Below the pieces are notes generated by a model. The model was given only the letters and a program-made list of their open reading frames with translations, was not told the DNA's origin and searched no databases. From IMG/VR virus record IMGVR_UViG_2537562172_000009, positions 1 through 32,147 of that record: DNA of 32,147 bases; one strand, 5' to 3'. This document shows, in pieces, positions 4,514 to 22,172 of the stretch (position 1 is the first letter of the stretch; every line of letters starts with the position of its first letter). Origin of the DNA: a virus (lineage: Duplodnaviria; Heunggongvirae; Uroviricota; Caudoviricetes). Made by a program: the position numbers and the translations under genes.

Positions 4514-6736
4514 TTGGCTGTTCAATTCGCTTATCCGTGGAACGTCCCACGGTCGGCAATCTCCAGCCCATACCTTACTTATGAGCAACAGCATCGCCGC
4601 GACCGTATGTTCGCGGCTTTGCTGCATGCAAAAAAGGTGCTTTCTCTCCAGCCCGACTGCGTGCGGTTAGATGTTTATCGCACTGCTGCGGTGCTGGAGC
4701 AAAATCAGGGTAGTCAACGAGCCAATGCATTTTTAATCAGCTTCTGCAAAAAGGCATTGCCGCGTCTTGAACTGGTCGCAAAAAAATACGAATGCGCTGG
4801 TATCAACAGCAAGGTATCAACCGCTGTTTTTGGAAGTCATTTTGATACTCAGCAAATGCAATATCTGTCGTCACGCATGGTTAATATGGTCGCCCGATAT
4901 AACCGTCTCCCGGACATGTCGCGCGCTGATGTTGACCTGTTGGCCGCTGATATTGCTAATTTCATTCGTGGTGAACTTGCCAACATTAATGACCACGGAT
5001 TCGGCGAGCTTAAAACGCTGTACACCTGGTATATTCGTGCTGGCTTTATTTCCCTCCAATTCAACGTTATCCCACCACATTGGGAGCGGGTTGAAAAAAA
5101 ATATGTCGGTGCGGATGAAATCGCACCGGCTATCGCCAAAATGTTTAACGATGGGTGGTGGCGCGGTCGTTTGCGCCGTGTAGCAGCTACGTGGCGCGAA
5201 CACCTGCAAATTGCAGTCGGCAACGTCAGTAAGAAAAAAAACACTTACGCGAGTAAAAACTGCGTGACTGACTGGCGTGAACAAAAGCGCCGCACTCGTG
5301 AATTTCTCAAAGGTCTGGATCTCGAAGACGAAGACGGCAACCGTATCAGCCTAATTGAAAAATATGATGGCTCAGTTGCTAACCCTGCGATTCGCCGCTG
5401 TGAGCTCATGACCCGCATTCGTGGGTTTGAAAACATCTGTAATGAGCTCGGTTATGTCGGTGAGTTTTACACTCTAACCGCGCCGTCAAAATATCACGCC
5501 ACGACTAAAGCCGGTTACCGTAACAGCAAATGGAGCGGTGCCAGCCCGGCTGACACGCAAAACTATCTAACCGGTATCTGGGCGCGTATCCGTGCCAAAC
5601 TACATCGGGAAGATGTCCGTATTTTCGGTATTCGTGTCGCCGAGCCCCATCACGACGGCACTCCACACTGGCACATGCTGATGTTCATGCTGCCGGAAGA
5701 TGTTGAATATGTTCGCTCCATCGTCCGTAAATACGCATGGAAAGAAGACCGCCACGAACTGAAAAGCGATAAATCCAAAAAAGCACGTTTCCACGCGGAG
5801 TCCATTGACCCGGAGAAAGGCAGCGCAACCGGCTATGTTGCTAAATACATTTCAAAAAATATCGACGGTTATGCTCTCGATGGTGAAACCGATGATGAAA
5901 GCGGTGAGCTGCTGAAAGAGACAGCCCCCGCCGTTTCAGCATGGGCTGCGCGCTGGCACATCCGTCAGTTTCAGTTTATTGGTGGTGCGCCGGTGACGGT
6001 TTACCGTGAGTTGCGTCGCCTCGCTGATACCGAAACCGCGCACGGTCTGAGCGTTGAGTTTGCCGCCGTCCATGATGCCGCCGACGCTGGTGACTGGGCT
6101 GGTTATGTTAATGCTCAGGGTGGGCCGTTTGTCCGTCGCGATGATTTACAGGTGCGCACACTGTATGAACCGCGTACCGAGCTTAATCAGTACGGTGAGG
6201 AAACGGTATGTATTAAGGGGGTCTACGATTCCTCCATAGGTGCAGGAAGCCCGATTTTAACCCGGCTCACTCAGTGGAAGATTGTTCCGAAGCGTGCTGT
6301 TGATTTGGCCGTTGACCTTCAGGACGGCAAAGCCGTCCCTCGGAGTTCTGTCAATAACTGTACGGGAAGCGAAAACGAGCCACCGGAACTTGATTTATCA
6401 AAACCGCTGAGTCGACGTGAAAAGCGAGAGCTGACAAATCGACTCAGGAAGAAAAAACCAGCGACAAGGCAAAAATTCACACACGGAAGGGATGAACAAA
6501 ACGACTCTATAGAAAGAACCATCGACGAAATACACCTGACCACTGGCGTAACGATAAGCCGGGGTGAAGCCCTGCACCTAATGGCGGGTGGCAAATGCTG
6601 CTTTGAAGGGAAATGGCTTAGAGGAACAGCCAATGGTGAGCTATTTAGAGCCGCGCAGCCTTACTCCGCCAAAGCTAAGAATATCCTTAAGCGAGTTGCA
6701 AAACTGGCAGAAACGGCAAAATTACCACGTGATTAA
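4514..6736 (+). CDS. A: replication initiation endonuclease (P2 gpA / 186 RepA family, HUH rolling-circle initiator)
   Basis: 740 aa; HUH-type metal-binding motif GTPHWHMLMF and active-site tyrosine motif ATGYVAKYISKN; follows the small early ORFs as in P2. Start as given is a TTG (4514) one codon after the upstream stop, with a G-run SD; the next in-frame ATG is 31 codons downstream. Confidence 0.88.
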   Translation: MAVQFAYPWNVPRSAISSPYLTYEQQHRRDRMFAALLHAKKVLSLQPDCVRLDVYRTAAVLEQNQGSQRANAFLISFCKKALPRLELVAKKYECAGINSKVSTAVFGSHFDTQQMQYLSSRMVNMVARYNRLPDMSRADVDLLAADIANFIRGELANINDHGFGELKTLYTWYIRAGFISLQFNVIPPHWERVEKKYVGADEIAPAIAKMFNDGWWRGRLRRVAATWREHLQIAVGNVSKKKNTYASKNCVTDWREQKRRTREFLKGLDLEDEDGNRISLIEKYDGSVANPAIRRCELMTRIRGFENICNELGYVGEFYTLTAPSKYHATTKAGYRNSKWSGASPADTQNYLTGIWARIRAKLHREDVRIFGIRVAEPHHDGTPHWHMLMFMLPEDVEYVRSIVRKYAWKEDRHELKSDKSKKARFHAESIDPEKGSATGYVAKYISKNIDGYALDGETDDESGELLKETAPAVSAWAARWHIRQFQFIGGAPVTVYRELRRLADTETAHGLSVEFAAVHDAADAGDWAGYVNAQGGPFVRRDDLQVRTLYEPRTELNQYGEETVCIKGVYDSSIGAGSPILTRLTQWKIVPKRAVDLAVDLQDGKAVPRSSVNNCTGSENEPPELDLSKPLSRREKRELTNRLRKKKPATRQKFTHGRDEQNDSIERTIDEIHLTTGVTISRGEALHLMAGGKCCFEGKWLRGTANGELFRAAQPYSAKAKNILKRVAKLAETAKLPRD

Positions 6737-6850: not shown

Positions 6851-7033
6851 ATGGTTGGGGAGCATTTCAGCCGGGCGCAGCAAAAGTGGGCTTGTGTGCA
6901 ATTCATCGCCGAGGTATCTCTGATTGCAAACTGCAAACCATCAGACCTAAAGCTTGCTCTGACTCTCATTGCTGACTTAGCAAATAGTGAAAATAATGAA
7001 ACCGAAGAAGGCATGTTTTATGAGGCTGAGTAG
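6851..7033 (+). CDS. small acidic hypothetical protein
   Basis: 60-aa ORF; strong SD GGGAGGGA 5-8 nt before the ATG; acidic C-terminus (SENNETEEGMFYEAE); internal repeat FIAEVSLIAN / LTLIADLAN; stop overlaps a perfect palindrome. Confidence 0.4.
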   Translation: MVGEHFSRAQQKWACVQFIAEVSLIANCKPSDLKLALTLIADLANSENNETEEGMFYEAE

Positions 7034-7053: not shown

Positions 7054-7067
7054 TGAAAAAACAATCA

Positions 7068-7094
7068 AACCGGCACCATGATTGCCGGTTTTTT
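7068..7094 (+). terminator. rho-independent terminator ending the early/replication transcript
   Basis: AACCGGCA-CCATGAT-TGCCGGTT followed by TTTT(ATGTGT): GC-rich core stem, 7-nt loop, U-run. Confidence 0.65.
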
Positions 7095-7194
7095 ATGTGT
7101 TCTATCAAAAGGATGGGGTCTGACATTCTCATCATCAGAATTGTGTTATTTTAGTGCAACTCATTCGTCGTTAGACATTGTAAGGGCAATGTAT

Positions 7195-7905
7195 ATGAAA
7201 CCAAGCACACACTGCGTTTATTGTGGTGTTCTCATGAACAGGATTGAAAATCACCCCCACTGCCGCTCAGTTGAACACATGATCCCGCAAGTTTCAGTCT
7301 CCATTCATAGAACCAACGGCGAAGGCGATTTCCATGTATGCAAAAAGTGCAATGCCGATAAAAGCCGAATTGACGAGGTATTGGGTGTCATTTGCCGCAT
7401 GGTTGGTGAGCACTCAACAGGCAGTTTCGATGCTATCAATAAATTCAAAAATGCTCTTAAAAGAAATGATTCAAAATTCCGCGAGGCATTCCAAAGTGTT
7501 AAACATACAGGAAGAGGTGCGCAGATAACCTTACCCCTTGAAGGCAAAGAGATTTATCGATATGGCTCGTGGTTAGCAAAGGGCGTCTTTTTCTTAGAGT
7601 ATGAGCAGTTGTTGCCGCCAGATAAATTAATCTGGGTAAATATCGTTCGCCATGATGAAGTAATGGCTATTAGAGACATGTATAGAAATCAGCGTGGTTC
7701 TGAAGCTTTTGAGGACTTGTCCAAAAACAGCAATGTGCCAAACATTAACGGGGAATCTTTCCTGATTGTTGGCCGTGAAGCTAAGGAAATGTTCATATGT
7801 TTCAATCGCGTAATGATGTTCCATATAAAAATATTAGATAAGTCATTCATTAATCAAAAAAAATGCAAAAAATCACTACTTATGCTTGATAAGAGAATTC
7901 GATAA
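7195..7905 (+). CDS. HNH-motif nuclease-domain protein with uncharacterised C-terminal domain (accessory)
   Basis: 236 aa from the ATG at 7195 (SD TAAGGG 8 nt upstream; the ORF-track start at 7078 lies inside the terminator loop). N-terminus carries CxxC (CVYCG), EH (SVEHMIPQ) and H-x-CxxC-N (HVCKKCNADK), the HNH/zinc-finger nuclease arrangement. AT-rich. Confidence 0.65.
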   Translation: MKPSTHCVYCGVLMNRIENHPHCRSVEHMIPQVSVSIHRTNGEGDFHVCKKCNADKSRIDEVLGVICRMVGEHSTGSFDAINKFKNALKRNDSKFREAFQSVKHTGRGAQITLPLEGKEIYRYGSWLAKGVFFLEYEQLLPPDKLIWVNIVRHDEVMAIRDMYRNQRGSEAFEDLSKNSNVPNINGESFLIVGREAKEMFICFNRVMMFHIKILDKSFINQKKCKKSLLMLDKRIR

Positions 7906-8093
7906 AAATTTGAGATTAGGTAGATGCGGTTTGGCATTTGTCGCATGCGTTGAACTCACCACTCTTTCTGTGGGTATCTATTCGTTGGTAGCCGGTAGCC
8001 TTATGTAAAGCCACGCGGTTTGCTTTTAGTGGAATAGTTTTCATTGATTATTGTAAGATTGAGATCTTTATCTTAAAGAGGATTTTGCTACGT

Positions 8094-9701
8094 ATGTCTG
8101 CACAAAGCATATCAAGCCTTTTGAAGGCTAATAAATGGATCGATACGAATGTAGGTAAGTTTGAGTTTAAAAAAGAAATTGGTGAAGGGGGCAATAGCAA
8201 CGTGTTCCTTTTTTCTAATTCAGGGCATGATTTTGCAATAAAATTCTTAAAGCCAAGTAAAGATCATAGAAAAACAGATAGGTTTAAAGATGAGTTTTTT
8301 TGTGTATCTCAAATGCCATCCAACAAATACATTGTACAATACTACCACTTAGATAAAATAACAATCGATGATGTTGATTATTACATCATTATCATGAAGC
8401 CATACGCTCGGTCCTTAAAAAAAGATTTTGCCAGTACAAACTCTGCTGAAGAATATGAACGCGATGTGCGGAAATTATTTAATCATTTATTTAATGGGTT
8501 AAGACATATTCATAGCCATGGCGTTATTCATAGAGATCTTAAGCCTGAAAATATTTTTATTGACAGTGCTACCGACTCTTATGTAATCGGAGACTTTGGA
8601 ATATCAAGATTCGATGATGAGTTTTTTGCACGTTTGTCCCAGACCAGAGAAAGTGAACGATTGGCAAATTATAAATTTTCCGCACCAGAACAGTCATCGG
8701 GAAATCATGAGATCACTGTACGTAGCGATATTTACGCGCTCGGTCAGATTATGCAATATTTTAGTACTGGAGATGTGAGCAAGGGCAACGGAAGAGAAAA
8801 ATTATCCTATAGTAATGTTAGCGAGTTTATTGCCATTCTGGATGATATTATAGGGAAGTGTATCATGCACAACCCCAACGACAGATTCTCTTCTTTGGAT
8901 GATATGGCTGAATATTATAAATCGAAACTTGAATCTAATAAAAGATTAAAAGAGGCCCAGTTTAGGCAAAAAGAAGAGTCGGAAATGTGGGGTTTCCTTC
9001 ATGCATTTGATGACGCAATAGTAAGATCTGTCCCCCATATAAATAGAGTGGAAAAAATCACTTCGGATTTAGACATTGAATTATTTCTTTCAAGCATTGA
9101 TGGCACTATTAGCACAGAAAACACAAAAGATTCACTCTGGATGATTAAGTCGGATGGTGGGGATCTAAACTACTACGGGTCAAAATTAAAGCAAGGCAAA
9201 TACTTTGAGATAAACTTTGGTGGGTTCATCACTGAAGTGAATATAGATTCAATTGATGTATATTATGATAGCCACTATCATCATAAAAACTTCTTCATAA
9301 TCATCATCAGTGGCATGCCTCCTTTCGAATTTAACGACATATCGGACTTATCAAAGAAAAAGATGAGAAGTAAAATAACCTCAAAAGATGATTATTGTAT
9401 TGAGTGGAATGGGTATTGTTTAGATCCTAACGATGTAAGAAATAAATACGTAAAAATTGAAGGGACAACATATAGGGTTAGTCACGAGGATTTCAAGGAT
9501 GTACATCGCTGTATAAAAAGAGATGCATTCCTTGTTGTTCCAACCGGTACACCATCATCACATATGAATGATCGGTCTGTTGCAACGGACCTAATAAATG
9601 CGTGCTTAACGAACCCAAATGGACTAGTTACAACAGATGTAGACCTTTATTTGAGAAGAATCAGGGACCATTATCAGTCTTGGATTCGTAACAGCTTGTA
9701 G
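8094..9701 (+). CDS. Hanks-type Ser/Thr protein kinase fused to an about 250-aa domain of unknown function (accessory)
   Basis: 535 aa from the ATG at 8094 (SD AAAGAGGA upstream; the TTG at 8085 is too close to it). Gly-rich loop IGEGGNSNVF, beta3 Lys in FAIKFLK, catalytic loop HRDLKPEN, DFG (VIGDFGIS), APE (FSAPE), subdomain IX DIYALG. Very AT-rich. Confidence 0.8.
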   Translation: MSAQSISSLLKANKWIDTNVGKFEFKKEIGEGGNSNVFLFSNSGHDFAIKFLKPSKDHRKTDRFKDEFFCVSQMPSNKYIVQYYHLDKITIDDVDYYIIIMKPYARSLKKDFASTNSAEEYERDVRKLFNHLFNGLRHIHSHGVIHRDLKPENIFIDSATDSYVIGDFGISRFDDEFFARLSQTRESERLANYKFSAPEQSSGNHEITVRSDIYALGQIMQYFSTGDVSKGNGREKLSYSNVSEFIAILDDIIGKCIMHNPNDRFSSLDDMAEYYKSKLESNKRLKEAQFRQKEESEMWGFLHAFDDAIVRSVPHINRVEKITSDLDIELFLSSIDGTISTENTKDSLWMIKSDGGDLNYYGSKLKQGKYFEINFGGFITEVNIDSIDVYYDSHYHHKNFFIIIISGMPPFEFNDISDLSKKKMRSKITSKDDYCIEWNGYCLDPNDVRNKYVKIEGTTYRVSHEDFKDVHRCIKRDAFLVVPTGTPSSHMNDRSVATDLINACLTNPNGLVTTDVDLYLRRIRDHYQSWIRNSL

Positions 9702-9920
9702 CCCGATGAGCAAAGTTAAGAATCAGCCAATCAATCCGGCAGCGTGAATGTTGGTTTTTTATGCCATTTTTCCGCCATTTCTCCATTTTCTAGCCATGCA
9801 TGCATCTGGTGCATGGTTTTGCATGCGTCAGTGCTGCCCGTTCCGTACGTGCGCCGCCAGAGCTGGCGCGGCTTCGGAGTGGTCATGCAATTGCATTAAA
9901 ACCGACCCATAAAGCGGGCA

Positions 9921-9939
9921 GGCGTGGCGGGGAAAGCAT
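9921..9939. other. cos site (cohesive-end sequence of P2/186 type)
   Basis: GGCGTGGCGGGGAAAGCAT followed by TGCGCGC, matching the 19-nt cohesive ends of 186 (and differing at 2 positions from P2's) as I remember them; located between the replication/accessory side and the portal gene, where cos lies in a P2 prophage. Confidence 0.6.
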
Positions 9940-10048
9940 TGCGCGCAGCACACACTTGCAATTTGATATTTTTGGTGTAAAAAATCGGTGTCAATGAGTA
10001 GAAGATGAAAAAATAATAACCAAAGGTTACTAAATCAAGGATGTGCCG

Positions 10049-10867
10049 ATGAAAGTTAGCTATGACGTTGTCATCAAAAGTGGTGATCAAGAAGTTGATA
10101 TGGAGTATGGCCTTGATACCCTCTCTGGAACGGCTGAGGTGACATGCATACTAGCAGAGGCAATACTCAGAAAAAAAATTATTAAGCGCCGCACTCATGT
10201 TAACCCTGCGCGAGCGGTTCTCAAACAAAGCTTTAAAAGTTCTTATGGTCAAAACTTCGACTTGATTGTTAATGAGCCGGAATTAGCTGCCGAATTAAAA
10301 AAAATGACCCGTTCTGTGTTCTCGGAAGTCATGGGGTATTTTATTTCTGAATCTCTATATCTGGAAACTAAGGAGCTATCTCCAAAAGCTGCAGGAATTA
10401 TTGAGGAGCTTGAGGAAATTGAAGATGAACTTATTGATCGTATCAGACAACCTTTGGTAAGGATGCATAGGATAAATCTTCAAAAAAACTTTGATGTTGA
10501 ACTTAACTATAAAAAACCTGCTGGCAAACAAAGAATAGCAAAGTTAGACACAATGACTGCTACAAACTTGACACAATCAAAAATAATGCCCGGTCAAGTT
10601 AATATTAACGCAGTTATTACTCGATTTAATGCGAGAACTGGAAATGGTAGGTTAGTTATCGAAGGTGAAGATGATACAGTAGCCTTTGGTTTTTACATGC
10701 CTTTAAAGGCTATACCCGCCGCTCAAAAAAGATTGGTCTCATTAAATTTACACAATAATAATGGCAGGCAAGATAACTACACATATCTAAAACTTACTGT
10801 TAGTAAAGTTGTAGTAAAAAGTGGTGATGTGGTGAAATATCTAATCCGTATGGTTGAAACTGTATGA
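10049..10867 (+). CDS. hypothetical soluble protein, first gene of a coupled two-gene accessory cassette
   Basis: 272 aa from the ATG at 10049 (AAGGA 7 nt upstream); AT-rich; near-identical short motif close to both termini (YDVVIKSGDQEV and KVVVKSGDVVKY); stop overlaps the next start (ATGA). Confidence 0.6.
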   Translation: MKVSYDVVIKSGDQEVDMEYGLDTLSGTAEVTCILAEAILRKKIIKRRTHVNPARAVLKQSFKSSYGQNFDLIVNEPELAAELKKMTRSVFSEVMGYFISESLYLETKELSPKAAGIIEELEEIEDELIDRIRQPLVRMHRINLQKNFDVELNYKKPAGKQRIAKLDTMTATNLTQSKIMPGQVNINAVITRFNARTGNGRLVIEGEDDTVAFGFYMPLKAIPAAQKRLVSLNLHNNNGRQDNYTYLKLTVSKVVVKSGDVVKYLIRMVETV

Positions 10868-11589
10868 GAAAGGTGTTGCTGTCTTCGGCTGGCGTGATTG
10901 TAGCTGTGTGCGCCTTGTATTACTTCAACTTCGGAGTAAACGGACATTTATCCAGCAAGACTGATGTTTGGGCGCAGTTTGGTGATTATTTGGGTGGTGT
11001 CGTCAACCCTATACTTTCATTTATTACAATTTACCTCCTTATAAATTCAATAAAACTTCAAAGGGAGGCTAATTCCAGCCTGATCGATGAAGTAAAAAGG
11101 CAAGAATCTTTAGAAGAGTATAAAAAATTTGAAGTGAGATTTTTCCATTTGGTTGAATGTCAGGATTCTAACTTTGAAAGGTTTTGTGTTCAAGTTGGTG
11201 ATGTTGATGGACAAACTGACGGGGTGGTCGAAGAATTTACAAGTGGTGCAGCCGTAACTTATCTTGAAGATAATATTGTAATTTTAGTTAAAGCCAAGGT
11301 GAAAAAAGAGGTAATAACAAAGTGGTTAAGTGAAGTGGATGCTAATGATTGCATTTTTTCAGTGGTGCGTCGCTTTTATTTGATTGTGAAGTTGATAGAT
11401 AATTGCGGGGTTGAACGGGAAGATTATTATGAAACATTAGTTAACTTAACTGACATAAAAATAATATCTTTAGTTGCAATGGCTTGTACATACTACGAGT
11501 GGGATATCGTAAAGTATATCCATGACAGTAAAATACTTGAACGAGATGGAGTTAAAGAGTTTGTTTCGCAAATATCCACTCACGATTGA
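10864..11589 (+). CDS. hypothetical membrane protein (2 predicted N-terminal TM helices), second gene of the cassette
   Basis: 241 aa; hydrophobic segments LLSSAGVIVAVCALYYF and GDYLGGVVNPILSFITIYLLINSI followed by a charged soluble domain; ATGA overlap with the upstream gene. Confidence 0.6.
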   Translation: MRKVLLSSAGVIVAVCALYYFNFGVNGHLSSKTDVWAQFGDYLGGVVNPILSFITIYLLINSIKLQREANSSLIDEVKRQESLEEYKKFEVRFFHLVECQDSNFERFCVQVGDVDGQTDGVVEEFTSGAAVTYLEDNIVILVKAKVKKEVITKWLSEVDANDCIFSVVRRFYLIVKLIDNCGVEREDYYETLVNLTDIKIISLVAMACTYYEWDIVKYIHDSKILERDGVKEFVSQISTHD

Positions 11590-11619: not shown

Positions 11620-12666
11620 TTATTCCGGGTTATCGAGGGTGTACTCTTTGAACCTGATGACCTCCATGCCGAGCCAGTCGTTTACCTCCCTGAACCTGTC
11701 CTGTAGCGGCGACAGCTCATTGCGCACAAATACCTTTGCCACCTTCTCAACGTCACCGAGTGAACCGATATTCTCGGGCTTGCCGCCCATGAGCTGGAAC
11801 GGCACGCGGTGCGCGTCCATCAGGTCGGCGGCGCTGGCTTTCTTAATGTTGAAAAAGTCATCCTTTGTGGCGACCTCGCTCAGTGGCACGATTTTGATGC
11901 CGTCCGGTTTTCCGCCGGGGGCGTAGAAAAACAGGTTCTTAAAGTTGCCGAGTCCCTTCGAGTTACGCATCGCCTCGCGCAGCGATTCGACGTCGGTCGC
12001 ACTTTGCGCCGGGTCAGTCACATACATGATGTAGCCTGCGTGCGCGCCGTTCTGATAATACTTGCGGCGGAACAGCGTCGCGGATTCATTCAGCCAAGCG
12101 GAATTAAGCGCGCTGAGATATTCCGGCAAACCGTAAATCTCCTGATTAATGTCGGGCTCCAGCAGGTGAAACACGGTATCAGGCGCGAACTCGTGCGGCT
12201 GGGTGAAGTTTTCCACAAACCAGAAAATCGAATCGTCGACTCCGCGTCGGGTGTATTTGGCTGGCGAGGCCAGCAGTTTGATTAACTGGCCGGTGACGCT
12301 GTGGCGCTGCTCAAGAAAGGCGTTACCGAACACCAGATAATCGAGCGCAAAGCGGCTGAAATCCTGACGGGATAACAACGGGTGCGGAATGTAGGTGCTC
12401 GCGAGCACGTTACGCTTAACATAAATTGGCGAGCTGTGATGCACGGCAGAGCGCAGGCTCTTTGCCAGCCCTGAGAAGCTGACCGGCGGCTCGTACCATT
12501 TGCCGTTACTGATGCATTCGACGTAATCCAGAATGTCGCGCTTATCGAGTACCGGCACCGGCTCGCCGAAGGTGAACGCTGTCGTTTTTGGCGGTGCGCT
12601 GGCGGTCAGTTGTTGTGGTTTGCTGGCCTTTTGTGCGTTGGCTTTACGGGATTTTTGTTTACCCAT
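11620..12666 (-). CDS. Q: portal protein
   Basis: 348 aa; minus strand; immediately downstream of the large terminase gene and next to cos; size and position match P2 gpQ. Confidence 0.85.
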   Translation of the reverse strand: MGKQKSRKANAQKASKPQQLTASAPPKTTAFTFGEPVPVLDKRDILDYVECISNGKWYEPPVSFSGLAKSLRSAVHHSSPIYVKRNVLASTYIPHPLLSRQDFSRFALDYLVFGNAFLEQRHSVTGQLIKLLASPAKYTRRGVDDSIFWFVENFTQPHEFAPDTVFHLLEPDINQEIYGLPEYLSALNSAWLNESATLFRRKYYQNGAHAGYIMYVTDPAQSATDVESLREAMRNSKGLGNFKNLFFYAPGGKPDGIKIVPLSEVATKDDFFNIKKASAADLMDAHRVPFQLMGGKPENIGSLGDVEKVAKVFVRNELSPLQDRFREVNDWLGMEVIRFKEYTLDNPE

Positions 12667-19500: not shown

Positions 19501-19930
19501 CGCCGTGCCGCAGCTCAGAAACAACCCCGATATGTTGCGCCTTTTCGCCGATAACGGGCATACCGATTCCCGGCTTGCCAGCTCACTCTCGTTTGAAAAG
19601 GTGTACGTACTGAATGTGGTGGTGACCGACTTCACCGGCGACCTCGATTTGATATTCGTGCCGGTGCAGGCGTGGCTGCGTGAACATCAGCCGGACATTA
19701 TGACCACCGACGACGGGCGGGAAAAAGGATTCACCTGGATTATTGATATCAATAACGATGATTCGCTCGATATCAGTATCAGCCTGAGGCTCACCGAGCG
19801 CACGCTCGTCAACGAGGTCGACGGCGCACTGCATGTCAGTTATGCCCCTGAGCCGCCCCCGCCTGAGCCGGTGACGCGCCCGGTTGAGCTGTACGTTAAC
19901 GGCGAGCTGGTGAGTAAGTGGGATGAGTGA
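19454..19930 (+). CDS. R: tail completion protein R
   Basis: 158 aa; position and size match P2 gpR; start overlaps the 3' end of lysC (an alternative ATG lies 9 nt downstream). Confidence 0.8.
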   Translation: MNSMQKHKSLRKALINAVPQLRNNPDMLRLFADNGHTDSRLASSLSFEKVYVLNVVVTDFTGDLDLIFVPVQAWLREHQPDIMTTDDGREKGFTWIIDINNDDSLDISISLRLTERTLVNEVDGALHVSYAPEPPPPEPVTRPVELYVNGELVSKWDE

Positions 19931-20372
19931 GTTAACCGCACTGCAGGAGCGCCTTGCCGGTCTGATTGCCAGCCTGTCACCGGCGGCGCGGCGGCAAATG
20001 GCCGCTGATATTGCGAAGCGCCTGCGCACCAGTCAGCAACAGCGCATTAAGCGCCAGCAGGCACCCGACGGCACCCCGTATGCCGCCCGTAAACGCCAGC
20101 CGGTGCGGAGCAAGAGAGGTCGTATCAAGCGCGAAATGTTCGCCAAACTGCGCACCAATCGCTTTATGAAAGCCAAAGGCAGCGACAGTGCGGCGGTTGT
20201 GGACTTTACCGGCAAGGTGCAGCGCATGGCGCGGGTGCATCAGTACGGCCTAAAAGACCGGCCAAACCGCAACAGCCGGGATGTGCAGTACGAGGCGCGC
20301 CCGCTGCTGGGTATTAACGCTGATGATGTTTCTGTTATTAATGATATTATCATTGGATCTTTATCAAAATAA
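19923..20372 (+). CDS. S: tail completion / virion morphogenesis protein S
   Basis: 149 aa; overlaps the R stop; position and size match P2 gpS. Confidence 0.8.
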   Translation: MSELTALQERLAGLIASLSPAARRQMAADIAKRLRTSQQQRIKRQQAPDGTPYAARKRQPVRSKRGRIKREMFAKLRTNRFMKAKGSDSAAVVDFTGKVQRMARVHQYGLKDRPNRNSRDVQYEARPLLGINADDVSVINDIIIGSLSK

Positions 20373-20397: not shown

Positions 20398-21441
20398 ATG
20401 GGTGGTGCATATTTATTCGATATCATAAAGGACATGCTGCCAGTTTTATCAGGCCTACTAGGAGTGTTGGGTATTCTCAATGTGTTTAAAACTTCGAATA
20501 ATCGCCTTAGCTTTTGGGGATGGCTGGCTGTTTTTGTAATTGTGATCTCCACGATTGCAACACTGCTATTAGCGAAAAAGGAAAAAAATGATAATGAGCG
20601 GGAAAAGATACAACTCCAAAACAAAATAGATAACATATTAAGAGACGTAGCCAAGGCTCGTGAGCCAATTGGGGAGGTTTCCATAACCTATTGGTCGCTG
20701 CTTCCTGATTCGAATCAACTGGTTCGAAAATACAAAGACTATCTTAATGAAAAAGCAAGAGGTGAGGTCGAAAATTTTTCATTCCATAACCTAACGAAGA
20801 CTAATAAAGATTATTTCGGGACTACAATCGATTTGGATGGGAAGCTCGCCGTTTTTAGCATTGATGAAAAAAACAAGTATTGGCCCTCGGGTTCTTTCTC
20901 TGAAATCGGTCTTTTGGCCTCAAATTTTTCAATAATGCTCTGTATCAATTCCAAACACACTAATGCTAAGGATGTGCGTTTTATCATAGGGGCAAGGAAC
21001 AACTTAGATTGGTGTGCTCTTGCCTTGCTGCCAAGAACAAGTGATATCTTTTATGACGTCAAAAAAGATAAAATTGGATTGGCAACAACCATTACATATG
21101 ACAAAAAATGGGTGTATTCCAATGGCGTTATTTCCTCGGTTAGAGATTTCTTCGGTTCGGATGTCTTTTTTGTTCTTCCCTCTACAGATTCTCGATTTTT
21201 GAATGACTATCTAAAGTCCATAGGAGCACCTCAGACGCTTATAGAGTCAAATAAAATAAAGTCCGAGATCATTGCTGGTATGAGCACAGAGTCAGTGAGC
21301 GTCAAAATGGGGGATGGCCAACGTTTTAATATCTCAGGAGAACATCTAAAAAAATATAACTCGAAAGATGGCAGAACTTTTTTCTATATCAAAATGCCTT
21401 TGTCAGAAAAAGAAGTTAGTGAGCTCGAGACAAAAAATTAG
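20398..21441 (+). CDS. hypothetical membrane-anchored protein (2 TM + coiled coil + about 250-aa domain), moron in the S-V slot
   Basis: 347 aa; AT-rich; hydrophobic segments LPVLSGLLGVLGILNVF and WLAVFVIVISTIATLLLA, then a Lys/Glu/Asn-rich stretch; sits where P2 carries orf30 (my recollection). Confidence 0.6.
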   Translation: MGGAYLFDIIKDMLPVLSGLLGVLGILNVFKTSNNRLSFWGWLAVFVIVISTIATLLLAKKEKNDNEREKIQLQNKIDNILRDVAKAREPIGEVSITYWSLLPDSNQLVRKYKDYLNEKARGEVENFSFHNLTKTNKDYFGTTIDLDGKLAVFSIDEKNKYWPSGSFSEIGLLASNFSIMLCINSKHTNAKDVRFIIGARNNLDWCALALLPRTSDIFYDVKKDKIGLATTITYDKKWVYSNGVISSVRDFFGSDVFFVLPSTDSRFLNDYLKSIGAPQTLIESNKIKSEIIAGMSTESVSVKMGDGQRFNISGEHLKKYNSKDGRTFFYIKMPLSEKEVSELETKN

Positions 21442-21486
21442 CACGGACCATTAGTATAGTTTGATTCTGGTTTGTGTCATGCCTCA

Positions 21487-21524
21487 CAGATAGGAAGAAA
21501 GTTGTTCATCACTTCTCCTATCTG
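21487..21524. repeat. hairpin-forming inverted repeat between the moron and gene V
   Basis: CAGATAGGA(A)GAA ... CTTCTCCTATCTG: a 9-bp stem plus a 3-bp extension with one bulge and an about 12-nt loop; ends about 12 nt before the V start codon. Confidence 0.5.
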
Positions 21525-21536
21525 CATTCTGTCCGT

Positions 21537-22172
21537 ATGAATACTTTAAACAATATCCAAGAACTGGCCCGCGCGATTCGCAACCTCATCCGCTCAGGCG
21601 TGGTGACGGAAGTCGACACCGTAAAGGGGCTGTGCCGCGTACAAAGCGGCGGGATCCAGACTACATGGCTGAACTGGCTGACCACCCGCGCCGGTCGTTC
21701 GCGGACGTGGTGGGCTCCCTCGGTCGGTGAGCAGGTTCTGCTGCTGGCAATCGGTGGCGAGCTTGATACCGCTTTCGTGCTGCCGGGTATTTTCTCCGAC
21801 GATAACCCCGCCCCGTCTGCCTCGGCGGATGCGTGGCATGTGGCTTTCCCTGATGGTGCGGTCATTGAGTACGAGCCCGAGGCCGGCGCGCTGACGGTCA
21901 GCGGTATCAAAACTGCCGACGTGACGGCATCGGAGTCCATCACTGCAACCGTACCGCTGGTACTGGTGAAAGCCTCGACCAGTATCACCCTCGACACCCC
22001 GGAGGTGATTTGCACCAATAAGCTGACGACAGCGACGCTTGAGGTACAAAAAGGCGGCAAGATGAGCGGCAATATCGAACATACCGGCGGGTCACTGTCG
22101 TCTAATGGCAAGGTACTCCACACCCATAAACACCCGGGCGACAGCGGCGGGCAAACGGGGGCACCGTTATGA
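21537..22172 (+). CDS. V: baseplate assembly / spike protein V
   Basis: 211 aa from the ATG at 21537, the size I recall for P2 gpV; precedes W-J-I. Confidence 0.85.
   Translation: MNTLNNIQELARAIRNLIRSGVVTEVDTVKGLCRVQSGGIQTTWLNWLTTRAGRSRTWWAPSVGEQVLLLAIGGELDTAFVLPGIFSDDNPAPSASADAWHVAFPDGAVIEYEPEAGALTVSGIKTADVTASESITATVPLVLVKASTSITLDTPEVICTNKLTTATLEVQKGGKMSGNIEHTGGSLSSNGKVLHTHKHPGDSGGQTGAPL

Follow-up and report, generated by a model that had tools for sequence, protein, structure and literature searches.

A Hanks-type kinase with a family-specific C-terminal domain as a candidate single-gene defence cassette in the gpA-portal hotspot of a P2-like prophage

Here we analyse a serine/threonine kinase gene carried by a P2-like prophage of Escherichia coli, on a stretch of 32,147 nucleotides (nt) that corresponds to positions 1 to 32,147 of the IMG/VR virus record IMGVR_UViG_2537562172_000009 (Caudoviricetes), referred to below, at its full length, as the window. 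The window is 100% identical to a prophage that is integrated beside yfiB/dgcN in E. coli O141:H4 strain P13-6. Judged by its domain match and motifs, the gene product of 535 amino acids (aa) is a catalytically complete RD-type Hanks Ser/Thr kinase, and its C-terminal domain is a family-specific module without a recognisable relative in the libraries searched (Pfam, NCBIfam, PADLOC, PHROG, PDB and BFVD). The gene travels on its own as a single-gene cassette. We hold with moderate confidence that it represents a horizontally mobile anti-phage cassette, serving in conflict between mobile genetic elements (MGEs) and carried as a moron in the gpA-portal hotspot of its prophage; its product probably acts in defence as a kinase set off by infection, and adds a variant to the single-gene kinase systems described earlier for E. 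coli.

Assignment to the Hanks class draws on domain matches and motifs alike. The Pfam Pkinase family (PF00069) matches residues 23-256 far beyond chance, with 105.7 bits against a cut-off of 31.7 and an expectation value (E) of 3.6e-30, and it also matches all of the 63 full-length relatives (27-82% identity) that make up our conservation alignment, while in the PDB a profile of the family finds the PknB kinase domains of Staphylococcus aureus and Mycobacterium tuberculosis (E 2e-34 to 1e-28). Each kinase signature listed in an earlier, sequence-only reading of this DNA is in place: the Gly-rich loop (GEGGNSNV, residues 30-37), the beta3 Lys (AIK, K50), HRDLKPEN (146-153), DFG (167-169), APE (197-199) and DIYALG (212-217); the alphaC Glu (RFKDE, E67) and the subdomain XI Arg (R264) are present as well. 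Across the family the catalytic set, made up of the Gly-rich loop, K50, E67, HRDxKxxN, DFG, APE and R264, is invariant or at least 97% conserved, and K50, R63, F64, H146, R147, D148, K150, P151, N153, D167, T184, N192, S196, E199, Q200, D212, R264 and R472 are strictly invariant; the invariance of the catalytic residues argues that phosphotransfer itself is under selection. A motif scan found no Walker A pattern in the protein and Pfam returned no AAA, OLD or Toprim match, so that the OLD-like ATPase reading was dropped, in agreement with the earlier statement that this is not an OLD-family ATPase/nuclease. No PASTA, FHA or other signalling partner was found by Pfam or NCBIfam, and no transmembrane helix is seen in the structure model described below. 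RefSeq annotates the product (WP_001276027.1) as 'serine/threonine protein kinase'. The longest version of the open reading frame (ORF) starts at a TTG (8085-9701, + strand); we chose the ATG at 8094 because of the Shine-Dalgarno-like AAGAGGA upstream and the RefSeq start, the TTG being too close to that motif for the usual spacing.

The C-terminal domain sets this kinase apart. An AlphaFold2 (AF2) model built with the family alignment reaches a predicted local distance difference test score (pLDDT) of 92 for the whole protein and resolves it into three parts, namely the kinase (residues 1 to ~265), a single long helix (268-312) and a beta-rich domain ending in three helices, and residues 296-535 modelled alone reach a pLDDT of 96.3 and a predicted template modelling (TM) score of 0.91. 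In the 63-sequence alignment residues 301-535 are conserved about as strongly as the kinase, with D306, W349, D357, E381, D433 and N450 conserved besides the invariant R472, and the least conserved stretch of the protein is the middle of the linker (281-300, windowed conservation 0.21). No Pfam, NCBIfam, PADLOC or PHROG match was obtained for the C-terminal half, and the domain searched alone against the PADLOC models gave no match at E <= 0.1. Pfam searches with the C-terminal domains of the 63 members returned nothing but three marginal matches, to TCAD9, Lipocalin and DUF6881 (one member each, E ~0.003-0.009), which we take as chance. Foldseek comparisons of the C-terminal model with 350,542 PDB chains and with the BFVD viral models gave best E values of 0.06 and 0.03, respectively, with query-normalised TM-scores below 0.2 in both. 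The sequence-only reading had named a match to a structural or virion protein family as a finding that would speak against it; neither Foldseek (PDB and BFVD) nor Pfam yields such a match, and a virion or structural role of the domain was accordingly dropped. That reading had also described a C-terminal half of ~250 aa as unknown. Its lack of a recognisable family holds, yet the domain itself is slightly shorter (~235 aa) and follows a linker helix of ~45 residues, and far from being an orphan it is conserved throughout a family of kinases of ~510-535 aa.

The extent of this family was traced by several routes. A word-indexed search with the full protein retrieved 538 proteins at E <= 1e-10, of which the top ~80 are 500-535 aa long, cover 90-100% of the query at 28-39% identity, and come from Psychromonas, Photobacterium, Shewanella, Brenneria, Burkholderia, Pasteurella and others. 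An exhaustive phmmer search of 1.84 billion representatives with the C-terminal 245 residues identified 36 clusters, with nearly all matches lying at the C-terminus of proteins of ~505-535 aa or in fragments. Furthermore, when the kinase part was trimmed from the top 120 matches, 109 of the 127 accessory regions clustered with this C-terminal domain, and a few relatives carry other N- or C-terminal modules. The distribution of the family is sparse and patchy. A pattern-based scan, which gives a lower bound, located it in ~12 of 100,044 species representatives, among Beta- and Gammaproteobacteria and Campylobacterota. Three of 5,426 complete E. coli genomes carry the kinase, one as a copy truncated by an insertion sequence (IS) of the IS3 family, and among draft assemblies the exact protein turns up in 289 sample blocks, every contig read having it in the P2 hotspot.

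By position, the kinase gene is cargo of P2 hotspot #1, lying in the variable, AT-rich interval from gpA to the portal gene. This slot has been designated P2 defence hotspot #1 (Vassallo et al. 2022, PMC9519451) and is described as a reservoir of anti-phage systems (Rousset et al. 2022, PMC9122126). In the window the island between the two boundary genes measures 4.9 kb, with a guanine-plus-cytosine (GC) content of 38% against 54% outside. With 35.8% GC, compared with 53.7% in the rest of the window beyond the island, the kinase gene is as AT-rich relative to the phage backbone as the sequence-only reading had stated. That reading had placed the gene in the slot where P2 carries old; the position is right and is a documented hotspot, but the kinase is not the sole occupant and shares it with three more cargo ORFs, all four on the + strand, namely an HNH-like protein and an overlapping gene pair; a conserved 60-aa ORF (6851-7033) precedes them. 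In other strains the gpA-portal slot is filled by alternative cargo.

Comparison of these hotspots elucidated the mobility of the kinase gene. In a P2-like prophage of Klebsiella aerogenes, a kinase protein 81% identical to that of the window is encoded directly between DinI and the portal gene, and only the minimal cassette listed in Table 1 is common to the two prophages. Two P2-like contigs of IMG/VR (L016 and L017) show gpA, ~650 bp, the kinase and then the portal gene, and a P2 remnant in Klebsiella pneumoniae reads int', kinase, ogr. Conversely, in E. coli and K. pneumoniae this hotspot also holds relatives of the HNH-like protein (65-86% identity) where no kinase is present, and downstream of the kinase E. 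coli carries either the two-gene module or DUF2188. The downstream pair is retained in E. coli S3 and ten further complete genomes that lack both the HNH-like gene and the kinase. The junction with the kinase-less S3 hotspot maps exactly to two 36-nt hairpin repeats, 83% identical to each other, which bracket a 2,666-bp block of the HNH-like ORF and the kinase in the window, which points to conserved terminators as sites where cassettes are exchanged by recombination. The co-occurrence check in P2-like prophages that the sequence-only reading had proposed thus reveals the neighbouring cargo genes as independent cassettes. A four-gene operon had also been considered and was dropped, given that the two-gene module is kinase-free in at least 11 genomes, that the HNH-like gene also occurs kinase-free, and that the kinase is found without either. 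In E. coli LR-21-1 (NZ_AP027487.1, locus L110 3219-5531) an IS3-family element cuts the kinase at about residue 397, removing most of the C-terminal domain and creating a natural truncation allele. The same strain has an ISKox3 element between gpA and the small ORF, and 'partial' cluster members of 397/398 aa from draft assemblies fit the same IS3 event.

Beyond these close relatives, members of the family are found repeatedly in phage hotspots and defence islands. A 36% identical relative lies upstream of the portal gene in a P2-like prophage of Pseudomonas, whose portal, terminase and scaffold proteins are 52%, 59% and 41% identical to those of the window, and on an HK97-like viral contig a 32% identical relative forms an opposite-strand moron between the portal and prohead protease genes. 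The latter contig carries a second moron, a DUF6216 protein of 297 aa, between the prohead protease and major capsid genes (L018 4183-5073, + strand). The relatives in defence neighbourhoods are full-length, at 31-37% identity, and those beside Lamassu, the retron, Upx and SIR2-HerA plus IetA/IetS are chromosomal or plasmid-borne. One is directly beside the Lamassu genes LmuB/LmuA and a type VI retron reverse transcriptase in a conjugative element of Shewanella baltica; one adjoins a Lamassu of another subtype in Methylophilus sp.; one is directly beside Upx in Sulfuricurvum; one stands between SIR2-HerA and IetA/IetS in Janthinobacterium; one is near PDC-S49 in Psychromonas; one adjoins the ABC-3C genes CTD10/MC6/DUF2326 in a metagenome-assembled genome; and one is located in Burkholderia among VgrG/PoNi, H-NS, DUF4365-PIN-TPR and KAP NTPase genes. 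In both Lamassu neighbourhoods the operon (LmuB, then LmuA) adjoins the relative on its downstream side in convergent orientation (S. baltica, L006 9696-12539; Methylophilus, L111 9068-12431); two such independent adjacencies in ~20 contexts could reflect either chance within defence islands or a functional link. The island of J. lividum PAMC 25724 (L150 181-14369) has the order SIR2-HerA, an unannotated 569-aa ORF, the kinase relative and IetA/IetS, and its unannotated ORFs may be further defence candidates.

Several observations weigh against a role in defence. Some relatives have neighbourhoods in which no defence gene is recognisable; one such arrangement, in which metH is followed by the kinase with three unknown genes and then by a phosphotransferase system (PTS), recurs on more than 100 contigs, and at least five of 11 species-representative loci have no strong PADLOC neighbour among the ORFs individually checked. 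The PADLOC label 'PD-T4-6', which this protein attracts, is unspecific, acting as a generic Hanks-kinase detector that over-calls defence: the label is also given to the housekeeping PASTA kinase of every Streptococcus thermophilus genome (PMC11514479). We found no convincing sigma-70 promoter upstream of the kinase gene, and literature searches, by accession and for mechanistic work on the family, returned no paper and no experiment on any member. The sensor role, trigger, substrates and abortive outcome considered below are inferred solely by analogy, and an effector or substrate-docking role of the C-terminal domain is just as conceivable.

With these points in mind, the defence kinase that we favour might operate as follows. 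The gene would be expressed in the lysogen with its product kept inactive, as may be supposed from the requirement of RD kinases for phosphorylation of the activation segment and from the invariance of T184. The C-terminal domain would then sense a product of an infecting heterologous phage through a polar cluster formed by D306, W349, D357, E381, D433, N450 and R472, and sensing would lift the inhibition, possibly by helix-mediated dimerisation and trans-autophosphorylation. The active kinase would phosphorylate host proteins, phage proteins or both and thereby halt the infection, probably with the loss of the cell (abortive infection), as described for Stk2 and for the Stk of prophage 933W. 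That the C-terminal domain is the sensor seems to us plausible, by analogy, though short of probable. The wider proposal, in which an undescribed fold acts as a phage-sensing module that switches on a Hanks kinase through the linker helix, and the family constitutes a distinct class of immune sensors, each a single-protein kinase, that phages, plasmids and islands have carried through the Proteobacteria and Campylobacterota, is put forward tentatively, as a possibility.

Table 1. Coordinates in the window of the kinase gene, its domains and the elements that delimit its cassette and hotspot.
Feature	Positions	Strand	Basis
gpA-type P2 replication endonuclease, left hotspot boundary	4514..6736	+	Phage_GPA
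Terminator-like hairpin, copy 1 of 36-nt direct repeat	7062..7097	+	Repeat search, terminator scan
Minimal mobile cassette, shared at 80% nt identity with the Klebsiella aerogenes P2-like prophage	8059..9946	+	blastn, gene maps
Shine-Dalgarno-like AAGAGGA, 12 nt 5' of ATG 8094	8076..8082	+	Read from the sequence
Kinase gene, 535 codons plus TAG stop	8094..9701	+	ORF list; RefSeq coding sequence WP_001276027.1 at the same coordinates; motifs
Hanks-type Ser/Thr kinase domain, residues 1-275, RD-type, with invariant T184 in the activation segment	8094..8918	+	Pfam, PDB profile matches, AF2 model, invariant catalytic residues
Long linker helix, residues ~268-312 (~45 residues)	8895..9029	+	DSSP on the AF2 model
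Family-specific C-terminal domain, residues ~301-535 (~235 aa), beta-rich with terminal helices	8994..9698	+	
Terminator-like hairpin with T-run right after the kinase stop, copy 2 of 36-nt direct repeat	9728..9763	+	Repeat search, terminator scan
gpQ-type P2 portal, right hotspot boundary	11620..12666	-	

Other roles for the gene have to be weighed against this proposal. In every E. coli context read for the exact kinase, the HNH-like region is found directly upstream of it in the same orientation (no gene is called there in L098, one of six contexts shown), the two are bracketed by the repeated terminator-like hairpin, and the HNH-like ORF has weak matches to PtuB-type HNH proteins (PADLOC, E 5e-5), which together could point to a two-gene defence of nuclease and kinase, with one partner regulating or licensing the other and a composition like that of 'Bandua', a nuclease-plus-kinase system reported from P4 hotspots (2026 hotspot preprint). 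The association in E. coli is, however, explicable by clonal descent of one arrangement, and the kinase is without the HNH-like gene in K. aerogenes, K. pneumoniae, the P2-like contigs of IMG/VR and all distant relatives, just as HNH-like relatives fill the same hotspot without a kinase; since each gene also occurs alone, we regard the two-gene reading as unlikely. Identity with Bandua is likewise unlikely when judged by its description, which places it in P4 hotspots and has its proteins unrecognised by annotation pipelines, whereas this kinase matches PADLOC models. The kinase might instead benefit the phage that carries it, through host takeover or counter-defence during lytic growth, as with T7 gp0.7, which phosphorylates and disarms host defences, or as a regulator of the lysogeny switch, as with the kinase module Pf KKP; phage kinases with such roles exist (bioRxiv 10.1101/2024.12.20.629319; PMC11341870), and the gene is borne by several unrelated temperate phages. 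Many full-length relatives, however, are not phage genes and reside in chromosomal or conjugative-element islands beside Lamassu, Upx, SIR2-HerA and retrons, the kinase has no phosphatase partner, and the gene is an AT-rich moron found in only some of otherwise near-identical P2-like prophages and therefore dispensable for the phage cycle, so that a benefit to the phage is in our view unlikely.

A kinase signalling in host physiology, by lysogenic conversion or in a housekeeping-like capacity, would make the defence-like context incidental, and it is true that Hanks kinases are mostly signalling enzymes, that the PD-T4-6 label catches housekeeping kinases, and that one relative is fixed among core metabolic genes on the more than 100 contigs mentioned above. 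Against this stand the lack of a transmembrane segment, of PASTA and FHA domains and of a signalling partner, the extremely patchy phylogenetic distribution, the repeated capture in phage hotspots with adjacency to validated defence systems, and the IS truncation in one lineage, as expected of a dispensable or costly accessory gene; we consider such a role quite improbable. The polarity of the two domains could also be reversed, with the C-terminal domain as the effector, for instance a metal-dependent hydrolase acting through the D/D/E/D/N/R residues, and the kinase as its sensor or regulator. Several invariant or nearly invariant acidic residues, the invariant arginine and a degree of conservation matching that of the kinase are consistent with this arrangement, but the invariant catalytic residues of the kinase speak for phosphotransfer as a selected function, and we rate a reversed polarity as highly improbable.

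The remaining cargo of the prophage comprises further uncharacterised genes. The HNH-like protein (7234-7905, + strand, 223 aa; longest ORF from 7078) has a CxxC...H...CxxC-N motif and, besides its PtuB matches, falls in PHROG 31193 (unknown function); its kinase-free relatives in the same hotspot make it look like a separate candidate defence gene. The overlapping two-gene module (10043-10867 and 10864-11589, + strand) encodes a 274-aa protein followed by a 241-aa protein with N-terminal transmembrane helices, matches PHROGs 13337 and 8999 (unknown function) with weak ZorB/MotB-like and DUF7947 matches, and is another uncharacterised hotspot cargo, kinase-free in at least 11 complete E. coli genomes. 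Elsewhere in the window, a second AT-rich moron (20398-21441, + strand, GC 38%), situated between a tail-completion gene (19923-20372) and a gpV-like baseplate gene (21474-22172), encodes a 347-aa protein with N-terminal transmembrane helices; of the two libraries searched with it, PHROG gave no match and PADLOC a marginal one (gop, E 0.036).

The kind of defence proposed here is already known, PD-T4-6 having been validated in E. coli, and the slot is a textbook hotspot, so that a kinase in this position is unsurprising to a specialist. The new element is the accessory domain, which is conserved, predicted to fold with confidence and found only with this kinase clade. To our knowledge, kinase-based anti-phage immunity is represented by few cases (Stk2, the Stk of 933W and PD-T4-6), in which the sensing domain and the trigger are mostly not understood. 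The family described here offers a compact, E. coli-native single protein with a confidently modelled accessory domain without known relatives, conserved residues ready for mutation (K50, D148, T184, R472, D357, E381 and D433), a natural IS truncation allele and a host with large phage panels available. Should the C-terminal domain indeed be a sensor, the family would reveal in what way bacteria link a eukaryotic-type kinase to the recognition of a pathogen, and E. coli phages could serve to map its trigger and substrates. For annotation, the 'PD-T4-6' label of PADLOC groups kinases whose accessory domains are unrelated, and entries bearing it should be divided by architecture.

Among known systems, PD-T4-6 is the closest in kind. 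The kinase part matches the PADLOC models PD-T4-6 (E 8.9e-36) and mad6 (E 3.4e-35), then MkoA and Stk2, and the kinase models read, those of the best 25 of the 34 families matched, align to residues ~13-295 only. Of the PD-T4-6 models, the best (PDLC04047) aligns through its positions 8-287 (of 327), more than 20 others also match the kinase part, and in models with lengths of 427-564 positions the alignment stops at about position 290. The validated PD-T4-6 (RRM76169.1, E. coli UMB0949) is a 1,311-nt ORF encoding 436 aa, with the kinase at residues 10-284 by its authors' HHpred analysis, and protects against T4 (PMC9519451). Like the gene described here it is a single-gene E. coli system with an N-terminal Hanks kinase and an unannotated C-terminal region, but it is shorter (436 against 535 aa) and its C-terminal region measures ~150 aa as compared with ~235-260 aa. 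Judging from the hidden Markov models (HMMs) and the published lengths, homology of the two over their full length is not supported, and the PD-T4-6 models do not match the C-terminal domain of this family; as a single gene matching the kinase HMMs, the gene would thus be of the same kind as PD-T4-6 rather than an evident full-length member of its family. Another protein of 436 aa (P0101) was suspected from its length to be PD-T4-6 and was dropped, its kinase being C-terminal, behind an N-terminal domain of 175 aa.

More distant are the kinases that characterise other defence systems. The kinase domain falls far short of membership in MAD6 of the methylation-associated defence system MADS (NF047741, 104.5 bits against a cut-off of 460, confined to the kinase domain), with no other MADS genes nearby, where the neighbours are unrelated small cargo genes; in the PknB/Stk1 PASTA kinases (NF033483, 98.8 bits against 450), with no PASTA domain or transmembrane helix; and in PglW of BREX (NF033442, 43.5 bits against 990), with no BREX genes in the island. 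Stk2 of Staphylococcus epidermidis is cited as acting by abortive infection (Depardieu et al. 2016, cited in PMC9122126) and is likewise a Hanks-type kinase, triggered by a phage protein, whose PADLOC model matches the kinase domain (E 1.2e-20), although it belongs to Firmicutes, has its kinase at model positions 130-360 of 500 and is similar in the kinase domain alone. The sequence-only reading had drawn its parallel with the Stk of prophage 933W, for which a self-inflicted abortive infection is cited (Friedman et al. 2011, cited in PMC9122126). Exclusion by a phage-borne kinase is indeed known from that case, and Stk of 933W/phi24B is, like the kinase here, a prophage-encoded eukaryotic-like kinase in E. 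coli, activated there by superinfecting HK97, but it is only distantly related (23% identity across residues 22-271, E 1e-5), lies in a lambdoid immunity region, is a reported tyrosine kinase and has no related C-terminal domain. With old and tin of P2, both of them AT-rich exclusion genes expressed in the lysogen, the gene shares the slot between gpA and cos/portal; there is no homology to either, Old being an ATPase/Toprim nuclease.

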